Virus record (IMG/VR): IMGVR_UViG_3300009784_000001 | Span: 278,418 to 342,417 of that record | Source: a virus | Taxonomy: Duplodnaviria > Heunggongvirae > Uroviricota > Caudoviricetes | Length of the DNA stretch: 64,000 bases | Reading direction: 5' to 3' (one strand) | Shown here: piece by piece, positions 7,882-56,442 of the stretch | How the letters are laid out: every line of letters starts with the position of its first letter | How positions within the stretch are numbered: the stretch's first letter is position 1 | Notes under the pieces: model-generated | Databases searched by the model: none | Told to the model about the DNA's origin: nothing | What the model saw: only the letters and a program-made list of their open reading frames with translations | Translations under genes and position numbers: made by a program

Positions 7882-8730
7882 ATGAGAAAGATATTAAACT
7901 GGATAAATAAAAATAGAGAAACATTATTAAAATCTTGTTATTCACTACCTATATTATTCGCTATTTTTATTTCTATTAATCACTGTATAAGATGGTTTGA
8001 GATTGCTAATCCTAATAGTTTTGCTATATTATTAAGTGTAGGAGTTGAAGTAGCAGCTTTTTCAACATTATTAGCATTAATATTTTCTAAGGGTAAATCT
8101 TTTAATATATGGCTTACATTTTTTATTGTAACTTTTGTTCAGATATTAGGGAATGTTTTTTATTCTTTCAATTTTATAGATGAAACTGGGCAATTATTTC
8201 AAACTTGGCAAAAATTTGTAAAAATAATATTTGATGAAGCATGGGACATTGATAAATCAAAATTTTGGTTATCTGTATTAGAAGGAAGTATTGTACCTTT
8301 GTTATCATTACTGTCATTAGATTTAATTGCTAATTTTGAAATGAAAGATAAAAAAAAAGATGATAGCAAGATGAAAGTATTAACTACTACTGAAGAAATT
8401 AAACCAACAGTAGAAGAAATATATCATAGACCTGGAACAGCAGTTCTTGATAAAGTAGAAGAAATATTAAAAAATGAAGAACCAATAATTGAAGAAAATA
8501 GTGATGAAGAAGAAATGGAAGAAGAAAAAGTAAATGAAATAGAAAAAAAAGAAGAAGTTATAACTCCTGAAATTGTTAAAGTTGTTCCAGAAGAAGATGT
8601 TAAACAAATAAAAAAGGAAGAATTAACCAAAAAAAATGTAAATAAAGCTGGACCTTTAGCTGAAGGTATTCCACCAAAACAACAAAGTGGCATAATTCCA
8701 AAAATAAAAATTACAAATAAAAAAAGCTAA
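7882..8730 (+). CDS. multi-pass membrane protein with acidic tail
   Basis: About 4 TM helices. Confidence 0.65.
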   Translation: MRKILNWINKNRETLLKSCYSLPILFAIFISINHCIRWFEIANPNSFAILLSVGVEVAAFSTLLALIFSKGKSFNIWLTFFIVTFVQILGNVFYSFNFIDETGQLFQTWQKFVKIIFDEAWDIDKSKFWLSVLEGSIVPLLSLLSLDLIANFEMKDKKKDDSKMKVLTTTEEIKPTVEEIYHRPGTAVLDKVEEILKNEEPIIEENSDEEEMEEEKVNEIEKKEEVITPEIVKVVPEEDVKQIKKEELTKKNVNKAGPLAEGIPPKQQSGIIPKIKITNKKS

Positions 8731-8741
8731 AATGTAATGAT

Positions 8742-9194
8742 ATGATAAAGATATTAACAGAAGATTTGGCAACTAGGAAAATGTTGGACAAAATTTTTAA
8801 ATTAAATGAAGAAGATTTATCAATGGATAGTAATACTACACAGAGTGATGAAGTTCCTATTAATGATAGTACTTTCCCAAATATACTATCAAATATAAAA
8901 GAAACTTTAAGTCAAAAATTACCTAATGTAACTTTTGATGAAAATCCATTTGTTCTTAATAAAAAAAATAATACTGTTACATTGAAAGGAAAAATACAAA
9001 ATTTAAATTTAAATTTTATTATGACAACTGATACTTCCAATGGTGGAGATGGACTTTATATATCAACACAATCATTGAATTTGAATGATAAAACACTTCA
9101 AACATTGAATGTATTATATGGTCATTCACAAATATTCCAATCTGAATGGACAATAAACGAAGTAGAAAAGAAATTAAATCCCAAGAATCTTTAA
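8742..9194 (+). CDS. hypothetical protein
   Basis: ORF track. Confidence 0.6.
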   Translation: MIKILTEDLATRKMLDKIFKLNEEDLSMDSNTTQSDEVPINDSTFPNILSNIKETLSQKLPNVTFDENPFVLNKKNNTVTLKGKIQNLNLNFIMTTDTSNGGDGLYISTQSLNLNDKTLQTLNVLYGHSQIFQSEWTINEVEKKLNPKNL

Positions 9195-9907
9195 TAGTGA
9201 GAAAATTAACAAAGGAAGAATTTATAGAAAAAGCTAAATTAGTACATGGCAATAAATATGATTATAGTAAAGTAAATTATATAAATAATTCAACAAAAGT
9301 CTGTATAATATGTCCAGAACATGGAGAATTTTGGCAATTACCAAACAGTCATCTTCTCAGTTTTGGATGTTCTAAATGTACTAATAATTATAATTATACA
9401 ACAGAAGAATGGATAGAGAAAGCAAAAAAGGTTCATAGAAATAAGTATGATTATTCCAAAGTTAATTATCTAAACAATTATACAAAAGTGTGTATAATAT
9501 GTTCTCTCCATAGCGAATTTTGGCAAACTCCTGATAATCATTTAGGAGGAAATAATTGCCCTAAATGTATGAATAAAAGTAACCTAGAGGTAAAAGTATC
9601 CACATTTTTGGATGATAAAGTAAAGGTTTTAAAAAATTATAGAGGATTTAAATGGTTAAGATATAAAAAGCCATTAGAATTAGATTTCTACCTTCCAGAT
9701 TATAATATTGCTATTGAATGTCAAGGAAGACAGCATTTCTATTCAAAAGGTACATTTTTTGAAAACAATAATCAAGAATATAAAAATGTAAAAGAAAGAG
9801 ATAGAATTAAGAAGGAATTATGTGAAAAGAATAATCTTCCCTTATATTATATAAATTATAATGATGATGTGGAGGAAAAATTAAATGAGATATTGAAATT
9901 GAGTTGA
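9146..9907 (+). CDS. zinc-ribbon repeat + Vsr-like putative homing endonuclease (start may be GTG near 9197)
   Basis: Paralog of 1326-2249. Confidence 0.75.
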   Translation: MDNKRSRKEIKSQESLIVRKLTKEEFIEKAKLVHGNKYDYSKVNYINNSTKVCIICPEHGEFWQLPNSHLLSFGCSKCTNNYNYTTEEWIEKAKKVHRNKYDYSKVNYLNNYTKVCIICSLHSEFWQTPDNHLGGNNCPKCMNKSNLEVKVSTFLDDKVKVLKNYRGFKWLRYKKPLELDFYLPDYNIAIECQGRQHFYSKGTFFENNNQEYKNVKERDRIKKELCEKNNLPLYYINYNDDVEEKLNEILKLS

Positions 9908-52381: not shown

Positions 52382-52410
52382 GGTAGATAAAGATAATTTT
52401 TGTATCTTTG
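52379..52410 (+). promoter_or_regulatory. Bacteroidota-type promoter
   Basis: TTTG...TATCTTTG. Confidence 0.75.
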
Positions 52411-52607: not shown

Positions 52608-53834
52608 ATGATAATTAAAAGTTTATTGGACAATGATCTATATTTTTATAATATGCTCCAGTTCATTGTTGATCAGAAATTTGACAAGTTGATTGTTGGT
52701 AAAGAATTATTTTTAAGAGGGGAATACAAATTTCCATTGGGTTTTGGAAAGGCATTAAAGGAAGAAATTGATTCCTGGAAAGATTTAAGATTTTCAGATG
52801 AAGAATTAGATTTTCTTTATTCAAGAACAAAAAATTGGATAAATTTTGATTTTATTTATGGATATTTAAAATCATATAAATTATCCCCTGATTTAATCAA
52901 ATTACATATTAATAGATGCTCAGATTCAACAAAAGAAGATTATGAATCTATATCTTTGAGTTATGAAGGTGAATGGGCTAAGATAATTATGTTTGAATGT
53001 TTTTTATTAGCTGTAATGAATGAAATCTATGGAAAATTGACATTTGATGTTAAACATGTGCTTAATTTTAGTGAAATATCAGCAAGAAATTCAAATAAAT
53101 TTCAAGAAATGAAAGACAAGAAAATTCAAGTTTTTGAGTTTGGGACAAGACGTAGATATTCTTTTGAAAATCAAAATTTAGCTATAATGCAAATGATTGA
53201 TTATGGTGTGATAAAAGGCACATCAAATCTTTATTTTGCTAAAAAATATGATTTGCCTGTGTTTGGTACAATGGCACATGAATTATTTTCTGTATTTGCT
53301 GCTGTATATGGTGTAGAGAGTGCTAATTATCAAGTTATATCTAAATGGGCTGAAACATTTAATGGTTCTCTTGGGGTAGCTTTGACAGATACCTTTACTA
53401 CACAATCATTTCTTCAACATTCTTTTACAAGATTTTATGCAAAATTATATGATGGAATGAGAGAAGATTCTGCTCCAAATACAGATATTTATGTTGATAA
53501 TGCTATTATTAAATATAGTGAATTAGGAATTAATCCAGTAAGTAAAAAGGTAGTTCATTCTAATGGAATTGATTCTGTTAATTTGATGTATCATTTATTA
53601 AATTACAGAAAAGATGAAATCGGAAGGGATTTAGGAGTAGGAACATTTTTAACTAATGATGTATCAAGAGAAGGTTCTGGTAAACATTTAAATAGTTGGG
53701 TTATTAAAACTGTTTTTGCTATTGTAAATGGTCAAAAGAGATATACAGCAAAATTAGGAGATAATCCAGCAAAAGCAACTTCTATTTCGGATAAATTAAT
53801 TGAATGTTATAAATTTTTATTAGATATAAAATGA
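52608..53834 (+). CDS. pncB: nicotinate phosphoribosyltransferase
   Basis: SLLDNDLY, EFGTRRR, GTSN, GTMAHE, ALTDT, GVGTFLTND. Confidence 0.88.
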   Translation: MIIKSLLDNDLYFYNMLQFIVDQKFDKLIVGKELFLRGEYKFPLGFGKALKEEIDSWKDLRFSDEELDFLYSRTKNWINFDFIYGYLKSYKLSPDLIKLHINRCSDSTKEDYESISLSYEGEWAKIIMFECFLLAVMNEIYGKLTFDVKHVLNFSEISARNSNKFQEMKDKKIQVFEFGTRRRYSFENQNLAIMQMIDYGVIKGTSNLYFAKKYDLPVFGTMAHELFSVFAAVYGVESANYQVISKWAETFNGSLGVALTDTFTTQSFLQHSFTRFYAKLYDGMREDSAPNTDIYVDNAIIKYSELGINPVSKKVVHSNGIDSVNLMYHLLNYRKDEIGRDLGVGTFLTNDVSREGSGKHLNSWVIKTVFAIVNGQKRYTAKLGDNPAKATSISDKLIECYKFLLDIK

Positions 53835-54124
53835 AAAAAGTATTATTATTTTTAAGTTTATTTATTTTTATTTCATGTGGTGATTGTGGATGTGGAGAGC
53901 CAGATTCATATGGAACATATGAATTAACATATAGCATAGTTTATTCTGATATGGTTTCAACAAAAACAATTACTATTTCAGATACTTGTTATTTAACCTC
54001 TTATAGAGGAAGTAATAAATTAAGTGTTAGAGATAAAAAGGCTAGTTATGGAGAAACAGTAATTATAGAAACAACTGCTCCTATTAGAATTGAAAAATTA
54101 ATTAAAATAGCAGAAAATGAATAA
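53831..54124 (+). CDS. lipoprotein
   Basis: Lipobox FISC; paralog of 59576. Confidence 0.7.
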   Translation: MKKVLLFLSLFIFISCGDCGCGEPDSYGTYELTYSIVYSDMVSTKTITISDTCYLTSYRGSNKLSVRDKKASYGETVIIETTAPIRIEKLIKIAENE

Positions 54125-54367
54125 AAGTGCATTATTAAAAATAGTAATTTTATTATTAGAAGATTATAAAGAAGAATTGGCTAATAATGGTTGTAATGAT
54201 ACACCAGATGAAATTAAAAATATCATTATTGAAGAAATTGGATTAAATGAATTTCAAAAATGGGCCGAAGAATGGAATAATGGAGAATGTGAAGATGCTA
54301 TAGATTATGATTGGATTGTAACAGGAGTTATTGCAAACCAGTTAAAAAAATTAAAATAGAAAATAAA

Positions 54368-54414
54368 AAGGGGGATTTATTACTATTGCAACCTCTTAAA
54401 AAATGCTAAAATGT
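54368..54414 (+). promoter_or_regulatory. SAM-II/SAM-V-like riboswitch upstream of metK
   Basis: AAGGGG-GATTT-ATTAC-TATTGC-AA-CCTCTT-A6T-GCTAAAA. Confidence 0.75.
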
Positions 54415-54458
54415 TGCAAAAATAAATCTCATTTAATAATAATTAAAAAAATAAAAAA

Positions 54459-55628
54459 ATGAGTAAAAAAGTTATTACAAGTGAGTTTGTTTCATGGGGA
54501 CATCCTGACAAAATTGCTGATCAAATCAGCGATGCAATTTTAGAAGAATTATTGTATGAAGATTCTAAAACCAGAGCAGGAATTGAAGTATTAGTAAAAG
54601 ATAATATTGTTGTTCTTGGTGGAGAAATCAATTCAAAAGGAAAAGTGGACTATGATATTGTTGTTAGAAGTGTATTTGAAAAATTACCATTTCCTGAAAA
54701 TCATAATCTTCAACCAGAGAATATTAAAATTATAAATTTAATTGGAAAACAATCCTTTGAAATTCATCAAGGAGTTGATAAATCTAATGATATTATAGGA
54801 GCAGGAGATCAAGGATTTATGGTTGGTTTTGCTTCAGATGAAACAGAGGAATATTTACCTTTAGGTGTTTATCTTGCTAAACATATTTGTCAATATATTA
54901 GTAAACAAACTCATCTCGGTTTTGGTCCTGATACTAAAACACAAGTTATTGTTGATTATTTTAATAATGAAATGCTATTATTTAATGATATACGCCCACA
55001 TATTATTGTTGAATCGATATTAGTATCAACAATGCAACAAGGAGATTTAACATATGATAGAGAATTGATAAAAAATATTATTTTGAATAATGATATGAAG
55101 ATTGATTCAGAAATTTATAAAAAATATATTAAAAATAATGAAACACTTGTAATAACTGTTAATCCTTGTGGTGAATGGAGAATTGGCGGTCCAATATCTG
55201 ATTGTGGAGTAACAGGAAGAAAAATTGTAGTAGATCAATTTGGAGGTTATTCTAATGTAGGTGGAGGGGGGTTAAGTGGAAAGGACCTTTCAAAAGTAGA
55301 TAGATCTGCTGCTTATATGGCAAGATATTTAGCTAAAAATATTGTTGCAAGTGGTATAGCAAACACTTGTAAGGTAGAATTATCTTATATGATTGGAATA
55401 CCTAATCCATCTTCAATTAATATAGAATTGAATAAAAATCAACATTTAGTACCAGAAATTAAGGCTTTTATTGAAGAAAATGTTAATCTGACTCCAAAAG
55501 CAATTATTGATAAGTTTAGTGATTGCTTTGAACCATACAGAATGGCTGTGGAAGGGCATTATGGAAATATGATGGATTGTTGGGAAGAAATTGATTTTGC
55601 AAAAGATTTGAAAGAATATTTATATTAA
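54459..55628 (+). CDS. metK: S-adenosylmethionine synthetase
   Basis: GHPDKIADQISD, GAGDQG, TGRKI, GGGLSGKD.SKVDRS. Confidence 0.95.
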   Translation: MSKKVITSEFVSWGHPDKIADQISDAILEELLYEDSKTRAGIEVLVKDNIVVLGGEINSKGKVDYDIVVRSVFEKLPFPENHNLQPENIKIINLIGKQSFEIHQGVDKSNDIIGAGDQGFMVGFASDETEEYLPLGVYLAKHICQYISKQTHLGFGPDTKTQVIVDYFNNEMLLFNDIRPHIIVESILVSTMQQGDLTYDRELIKNIILNNDMKIDSEIYKKYIKNNETLVITVNPCGEWRIGGPISDCGVTGRKIVVDQFGGYSNVGGGGLSGKDLSKVDRSAAYMARYLAKNIVASGIANTCKVELSYMIGIPNPSSINIELNKNQHLVPEIKAFIEENVNLTPKAIIDKFSDCFEPYRMAVEGHYGNMMDCWEEIDFAKDLKEYLY

Positions 55629-55641
55629 TACAAATTATTTT

Positions 55642-56442
55642 ATGGAAAATTATAGAAATAAATTTAAATTTTTATGTGAATATGATGTTTCTAAAGGTGG
55701 TCTTCTTATGGAATCAGAAGGTAGGTATAAATTAATTGGATATATAAAAGATTCTGATGTAAAATTTGCACTTGGTGATTATTATGTTTTAATTGATACA
55801 ACTGTGCCTGAATCAGATAATATAAATCAATATGCTGAAAGAGCAATTATGTATAATTCAGAAGAAGATGGATCAGGAATTACTCTTCCTCATTATAGAG
55901 AATTAAAAAATTTTATTACACTTTTACCAGAATACAAAAATTCATATTATGAACATGCTATTTTTGGAGAACCAGAAGATATAAAGAAACAAAAATCTGA
56001 AGAACTTTTTGCAACTATTCAACAAGAAAATGGAAATGCTATATTAACACATAATTCTTCTAAAAAAATTACTGATGGATATGTGAGAATAGGAATGACT
56101 TCTAATGATTACTCTGCTTCTGATTTTAGAGGAGATAATACTCCAAGAGCTTATTTCTGGGGAAGTAGTGGTGGTATGGATGTATCAAATGCTCATGCAA
56201 CTTATATTTACACTTGTGAAGTTCCAATAGATAAAATTTATGATATTCAAAATAATATAAACCACTGGGATTCAAAAGAAGCTATAGCGAATGGTTATAT
56301 TGCTACAGCATATTATATGAGTGGAGAAAAGCAAAGAGGAACAGTAGTTGCTTCTTATGTGTCTTTACCAATAAAAACCATAAAAATTAGTATGGATAGT
56401 AGTAAAATTTATAATGCCAATTGGCAGTTGATTAATCAATAA
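55642..56442 (+). CDS. hypothetical, possible ADP-ribosyltransferase-like virion protein
   Basis: LTHNSS..AYFW..YIYTCEV. Confidence 0.35.
   Translation: MENYRNKFKFLCEYDVSKGGLLMESEGRYKLIGYIKDSDVKFALGDYYVLIDTTVPESDNINQYAERAIMYNSEEDGSGITLPHYRELKNFITLLPEYKNSYYEHAIFGEPEDIKKQKSEELFATIQQENGNAILTHNSSKKITDGYVRIGMTSNDYSASDFRGDNTPRAYFWGSSGGMDVSNAHATYIYTCEVPIDKIYDIQNNINHWDSKEAIANGYIATAYYMSGEKQRGTVVASYVSLPIKTIKISMDSSKIYNANWQLINQ

Follow-up and report, generated by a model that had tools for sequence, protein, structure and literature searches.

A SAM-II-type riboswitch ahead of a jumbo-phage SAM synthetase gene, with a predicted relay that would bury the start codon

The SAM synthetase gene (metK) of a phage with a 359,943 nt genome is preceded by an RNA element which its sequence allows us to assign, with high confidence, to the SAM-II type of riboswitch, the closest family being the long-loop RF01726 of Bacteroidota and not SAM-V. 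An earlier note on this DNA had claimed a SAM-II-like riboswitch ahead of a phage metK, and this is borne out both by a match to RF01726 (36.9 bits) and by recurrence of the element, with covariation, in related phages. Comparison of these leaders indicates that three pairings, which form the aptamer, an anti-aptamer helix and an anti-start helix, are mutually exclusive, conserved and covarying in the phages. We propose that in this copy they probably constitute a translational OFF switch, giving feedback control of SAM synthetase through burial of the metK AUG. The window referred to below is the whole stretch analysed, 64,000 nt (positions 278,418 to 342,417 of IMG/VR record IMGVR_UViG_3300009784_000001), and all features described in it lie on the plus strand.

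The aptamer (54368..54411), delimited by RF01726 and by placement of its motifs, is of the long-loop SAM-II type. It comprises a P1 helix of 6 bp (AAGGGG, 54368-73, with CCUCUU, 54392-97), the loop core GAUUU (54374-78), UAUUGC (54384-89), GCUAAAA (54405-11, GCUAAA being 54405-10) and a pseudoknot, P2, in which UUGC (54386-89) pairs with GC (54405-06) and AA (54408-09). Every motif lies where the earlier note had placed it, in SAM-II pseudoknot order. U54407, unpaired in P2, is expected by analogy with the SAM-II structure to be the partner of the SAM adenine, a U-adenine Hoogsteen pair having been described in that structure (PMC6411933). The ligand-pocket nucleotides GAUUU, UUG and CUAAA are all intact; the linker that the long-loop consensus has between P1 and GAUUU is missing, so that the two abut, and P2 shows no clear extension.

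A search against all Rfam families returned RF01726 at 54365-54419 (36.9 bits, E 2.9e-5), a score below the gathering threshold of 44 bits, with a cmscan alignment that is wrong in the loop because the linker is missing there. In the whole phage genome the aptamer is nevertheless the top RF01726 match (E 3e-6), with a gap of 18 bits to the runner-up at 18.9 bits. A pattern combining the core with P1, composed after the sequence had been seen, occurs once in the genome, exactly at the aptamer, and in none of 60 genomes simulated with matching dinucleotide composition. Of the two models named in the earlier note, SAM-II thus gave a match, albeit below its cut-off, and SAM-V (RF01826) gave none in the genome at E<=1, nor does a Shine-Dalgarno sequence follow the pseudoknot. 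SAM_alpha (RF00521) likewise has no match in the genome at E<=1, and at gathering level Rfam finds only tRNAs in the window. A candidate tandem aptamer at 54305-64 (RF01726, 18.9 bits) was rejected, as it lies inside the upstream ORF and its 3' core is missing.

The metK gene itself (54459..55628, AUG at 54459-61, 389 aa) is intact, scoring 350.4 bits against a cut-off of 309.4 for TIGR01034, and its signature motifs GHPDK, GAGDQG, TGRKI and KVDRS align with solved MetK (E 5e-72). The stop codon of an 80-aa ORF (54117..54359), which is syntenic in the closest metK relative (locus L012), lies 9 nt before P1. No promoter was found directly ahead of the aptamer in the window, L001 or L012, and the nearest upstream intergenic box of the Bacteroidota type (TAnnTTTG) is at 52403..52410; the riboswitch therefore probably lies within an operon, with a polycistronic mRNA probably running from this box through the nicotinate phosphoribosyltransferase (NAPRTase) gene (52608-53834) and two small ORFs into the riboswitch. 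A nicotinate phosphoribosyltransferase gene is placed likewise in L012, and a similar gene lies near the metK of L322. Directly behind metK is a 266-aa ORF (55642..56442), with a similar ORF after metK in L001 and L012, which has no match in NCBIfam, PHROGs, Pfam or PDB sequences. This ORF is unrelated to the SAM lyase of L446. The gene immediately behind the phage-type metK at that locus (L446:441-2376) matches SAM lyase family PF23780 (E 1e-15), an arrangement that places SAM synthesis beside SAM destruction; a promoter box lies upstream and no riboswitch is seen there.

The phage record is complete, bears terminal repeats and a gp23-type capsid gene, and has 26% GC. The genome is present in termite-gut sequencing runs, which may be the source of the window; in these an 85,861-nt contig spans 54344-54460, its aligned parts lying the expected 117 nt apart. 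An RNA library yielded one 266-nt contig identical to metK, which is no proof of transcription. The gp23 match is split in two within a single 652-aa frame (152856-154574, outside the window), and the ~190 extra residues between the halves are possibly an intein or an inserted domain. Nine adenine methyltransferase genes were identified (six N6/N4 and three D12-type), and five relatives have 3-5 matches each to the N6/N4 methyltransferase family. A search of the genome for SAM lyases gave no match, as did its positive control. Shine-Dalgarno-like words are not enriched upstream of the phage ORFs (3.8% compared to 5.4% at random), TAnnTTTG boxes are found upstream of 16% compared to 5.6%, and positions -3 and -12 are A-rich, on which grounds we take the host to be a member of the Bacteroidota. 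In Bacteroidetes, which have the same expression style, structure in the initiation region tunes translation (PMC6847099).

MetK searches covered ~170 loci and uncovered an aptamer before metK in ~15 distinct leaders, on viral contigs as long as 373 kb or, in L015, L099, L101 and L102, on short metagenome pieces that are phage-type by their MetK. The RF01726 scores of these phage-type leaders range from 29.7 to 56.6 bits, with only L099 (56.6), L442 (47.2) and L022 (46.4) above the 44-bit cut-off; because most fall under it, standard annotation misses the phage copies. The core (GAUUU, UUG, CUAAA) is invariant in the 15 aligned phage leaders, window included. P2, in which all 60 cells are paired, is mostly invariant and shows little covariation, with a single two-sided change of C-G to U-A. 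P1 is present with 3-8 bp and varying pair types in 17/17 leaders, in a survey whose script picked the best helix and was therefore biased towards pairing. A promoter box lies just upstream of 22 of 25 leaders (near-duplicates counted), a position that most phage copies share with the host copies. On a further viral contig (L183:7803-7866) RF01726 scores 44.1 bits, at the cut-off, with no metK recognised behind it in the available stretch. Looser pattern scans gave mostly chance matches.

The second pairing involves an anti-aptamer strand (54412..54430) whose nucleotides 54413-19 pair with 54386-92 and 54421-30 with 54372-81 in the predicted ON state, forming a helix of 17 bp that precludes P1 and P2 alike. 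The competing hairpin (54372-54430) has a z score of -3.2, and 0/200 shuffles fold as well. The earlier note had described this mutually exclusive hairpin as ending at 54428 and as offering a switch; it is real, it is 2 bp longer (to 54430) and it shows compensatory changes in relatives, among them UGUAGU/ACUACA, UGGGAC/GUCCCA, UGUACC/GGUACA and UGUCGU/ACGACA. It is however only half of the switch, the anti-start pairing having had no place in that claim. In a permutation test on 15 phage-type leaders, the variable loop of the aptamer paired better with its own spacer than with the spacers of other leaders (mean -2.3 kcal/mol, p<5e-5). In folds of successively truncated leaders P1 dominates up to ~54425 and has given way fully to the anti-aptamer fold once 54430 is reached, at which point the AUG has yet to be made; this points to a decision taken during transcription.

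The third pairing is made by the anti-start strand CUCAUUU (54428..54434), whose first three nucleotides (CUC, 54428-30) are also part of the anti-aptamer helix. It is complementary over 7 bp to 54457-54463, across the metK AUG, in an A-rich translation initiation region (54435..54463) that lacks a Shine-Dalgarno sequence and is the predicted target in the OFF state. In homologs the 3' end of this strand usually runs into CAU and further complement of the start region, and across the leaders the start region pairs best with its own spacer (-2.5 kcal/mol, p<5e-5; 8/15 at shuffle p<=0.05), although these p values, like that for the loop, overstate independence because the 15 leaders are kin. The window ranks first among the 15 in both cross-pairing tests. 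An exact complement of positions -2..+4 is found in 6 of the 15 phage spacers, where 1.7 would be expected, and strict helices over the AUG likewise show enrichment among the phages (5/15). Locus L101 has a GUG start, and its anti-start pairing is still present.

Locking the aptamer in the window raises the pairing of the AUG from 0.41 to 0.98 (0/100 shuffles) and the cost of opening it from 0.5 to 2.9 kcal/mol (5/100 dinucleotide shuffles). Occlusion increases by at least 2 kcal/mol in the locked state of 11/15 leaders, a result that is weak by itself because the method is biased upward, shuffled sequences gaining 0.5-2.4 kcal/mol on average in the same way. The relatives are not uniform: L018, L017 and L442 carry a nested hairpin variant of the relay, in L127, L129 and L393 the aptamer is only 11 nt from the AUG, L182 and L322 have no anti-start helix, and L102 and L017 fit the platform model poorly.

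Under the model that we favour, the aptamer would be transcribed first and P1 would fold. Binding of SAM would then lock the pseudoknot so that the downstream strand could not invade, and the freed 3' end of that strand would form its 7 bp over the AUG, blocking ribosome initiation. At low SAM the downstream strand would instead invade the aptamer through its 17 bp and capture the CUC, leaving the A-rich initiation region open. The switch would hide the start codon itself because ribosomes of a Bacteroidota-type host do not use Shine-Dalgarno pairing, and its purpose may be to keep SAM available for the phage DNA methyltransferases without overproduction. We infer SAM binding, the direction of control, its timing and this purpose from the pairings and their genomic context.

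The first alternative to be weighed is that the window copy descends from a working switch but is decaying or locked ON, and no longer silences metK at cellular SAM levels. Its ON fold is predicted to lead the OFF fold by 6.7 kcal/mol, not counting the energy of the pseudoknot and of SAM, and homologs have gaps between -6.7 and +8.2 kcal/mol; equilibrium folding alone therefore gives no poised switch, and in most homologs unconstrained equilibrium folds do not separate ON from OFF, which are distinguished only as forced states. A further weakness of the favoured model is that the anti-start helix of the window is weak (-3.4 kcal/mol). For a copy locked ON, the anti-aptamer strand also covers UUGC from 2 nt past the aptamer end. 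The same alternative draws on losses among relatives, since 26 of the 40 sequences in the MetK clade lack the switch, the close relatives L013 and L014 among them. In L012, where the anti-AUG pairing is lacking and the anti-aptamer retained, 14 consecutive A (L012:1585-1605) stand in place of the metK start codon, reflecting either a homopolymer error or a lost start. Against decay, all core nucleotides are intact, and the window loop is unlike that of most homologs yet is matched exactly by the anti-aptamer and anti-start strands, as the two first ranks attest. Dominance of P1 until ~54425 would moreover leave time for SAM to bind. We therefore regard a decayed or ON-locked copy as unlikely and retain the AUG-burying OFF switch as the better reading.

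The distribution of the switch also bears on its history. A quick tree, from which L026 and L099 are absent, groups the window MetK with phage-type sequences in a clade of 40 rows (SH-aLRT 100), from which the 23 Bacteroidota MetK sequences are separate; the switch is present in 14/40 of the clade members, a distribution that requires at least six events of gain or loss. By this tree, a single recent pick-up of host metK together with its switch is not supported for the clade. Ancient presence with losses and repeated grafting would each account for the patchy distribution. Cultured phages have no close MetK, the best being ~41%. Two viral contigs of 56-57 kb, L182 (minus, 918-2286) and L322 (minus, 8428-9800), carry a MetK that groups with those of hosts and an aptamer closely resembling the one in L102, a locus with a phage-clade MetK; this suggests exchange of switch or gene among phages.

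We lean, if only somewhat, towards the broader reading that in one lineage of Bacteroidota jumbo phages SAM homeostasis is managed by the phages themselves, by means of a phage-type MetK, a SAM-II switch repeatedly gained or lost, and a relay of three states through which the start codon is buried. If so, the phage could sense a shortage of SAM during infection and feed many DNA methyltransferases, and the relay would be an undescribed, Shine-Dalgarno-independent expression platform common to a subset of hosts.

A second alternative accepts a real SAM-II riboswitch but has it act on transcription, through Rho-dependent termination or through decay promoted by the freed anti-aptamer strand, the AUG pairing being secondary. 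Among Bacteroides TPP riboswitches, translational ones lie <5 nt from the start and those >40 nt away are transcriptional (Costliow et al., 10.1101/867226), and the spacer of 48 nt in the window would fall in the transcriptional class. Host leaders lend this some weight: in 77 + 39 Bacteroidota SAM-II leaders, the anti-aptamer helix is common (20/68, 13/22 and 8/15 at p<=0.05), without a clear anti-AUG helix, the strict form of which shows no group enrichment in hosts (3/65, 2/22 and 1/15), and the host spacers are C-rich (21.6% C compared to 12.8% G; C>G in 53/60). Phage spacers, in contrast, do not resemble Rho loading sites, being short and rich in A and U (9.6% C); the plus strand has no intrinsic terminator between the aptamer and the AUG; the anti-AUG pairing covaries in the phages; and termination within a probable operon would, we reason, cut off the downstream genes too. 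Control at the level of transcription is thus quite unlikely, and burial of the AUG remains the preferred account of the phage leaders.

The AUG-hiding relay is clearest in phages but is probably not unique to them. In a subset of hosts, CCCAU occurs in the spacer of 11/29 genes starting with AUGGG compared to 1/36 others, an excess to which kinship may contribute, and in the second host sample the corresponding count is only 2/12. Roughly one in eight of the sampled Bacteroidota SAM-II aptamers lies 0-5 nt before the metK start (L198, L215, L234, L238, L259), a direct-occlusion layout like that of phage L127 and L393.

Two further possibilities concern the ligand and the sense of control: the element could respond to SAH, or to SAM and SAH alike, or it could be an ON switch in which the long hairpin serves as a terminator. 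The score under the Rfam cut-off and the junction of P1 and core without a linker are compatible with an altered specificity, although the core matches SAM-II, which discriminates >1000-fold against SAH (PMC1273637); only three of the eight nucleotides after the hairpin are U, arguing against a terminator, and there would be little sense in SAM activating the gene for its own synthesis. We consider either of these very improbable. Chance resemblance, which might be entertained for a 26% GC genome with many weak RF01726 matches, is refuted by the comparative data and is barely credible given the 18-bit gap, the placement directly before metK, the covarying recurrence and three relatives above the cut-off.

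The long-loop SAM-II class is known (RF01726; Weinberg et al. 2010, PMC2864571), and the phage copies resemble it in P1, pseudoknot core, metK target and Bacteroidota context. They differ in being encoded by jumbo phages, ahead of a separate clade of MetK, and the window copy also in lacking the linker between P1 and GAUUU; in the parts of that paper and its supplement available to us, no expression platform is described for long-loop SAM-II. SAM_alpha (RF00521; Corbino et al. 2005, PMC1273637) and SAM-V (RF01826) share the H-type pseudoknot and the conserved U, GC and GCUAAA core. By comparison with both, the window has neither terminator nor Shine-Dalgarno sequence, and its AUG, 48 nt away, would be reached by the relay strand. 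SAM-II and SAM-V riboswitches can hide a Shine-Dalgarno sequence adjoining the pseudoknot. Alternatively, control in the SAM-II/SAM_alpha and SAM-V families is exerted by terminators (PMC1273637, PMC2258182). The molecular detail of translational control by riboswitches in Bacteroidota, which do without Shine-Dalgarno sequences, has been left open (10.1101/867226); the Bacteroides TPP switches and the window element share hosts of this kind, and the latter is proposed to control translation from a distance.

The earlier note's remark that riboswitches are rarely reported in phages agrees with the literature, in which a glutamine riboswitch was described in Methylophage Melnitz and a few marine phages and such elements were called rare (Buchholz et al. 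2022, PMC9004378). Both that riboswitch and ours are predicted and phage-borne, but they differ in ligand and class, and the target of the Melnitz element is unclear, whereas the window switch precedes the enzyme that makes its presumed ligand and is conserved over many phage lineages. In our literature search, mostly without subscription journals, neither SAM-II in phages nor the AUG-hiding platform proposed here was the subject of any paper. The phage leaders offer a compact design of ~100 nt with natural compensatory variants, and suggest that phages actively regulate the pool of SAM, a metabolite of DNA methylation and of several restriction systems.

Similar cores were also seen in other viral settings. 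In marine viral contigs with tRNA clusters (L175:3987-4022 and L180:1106-1141, neither with an Rfam SAM match at E<=0.1) a SAM-II/V-like core stands directly before a GGAG(G) Shine-Dalgarno sequence and a short ORF, and the same arrangement is found in the marine viral contigs L174, L178, L186, L188, L189, L191 and L194. At L387:1081-1114 and L421:8641-8674, again with no Rfam match at E<=0.1, a similar core with an 8-bp P1 and a Shine-Dalgarno-like GGG directly precedes a 115-aa ORF with a signal-peptide-like start.
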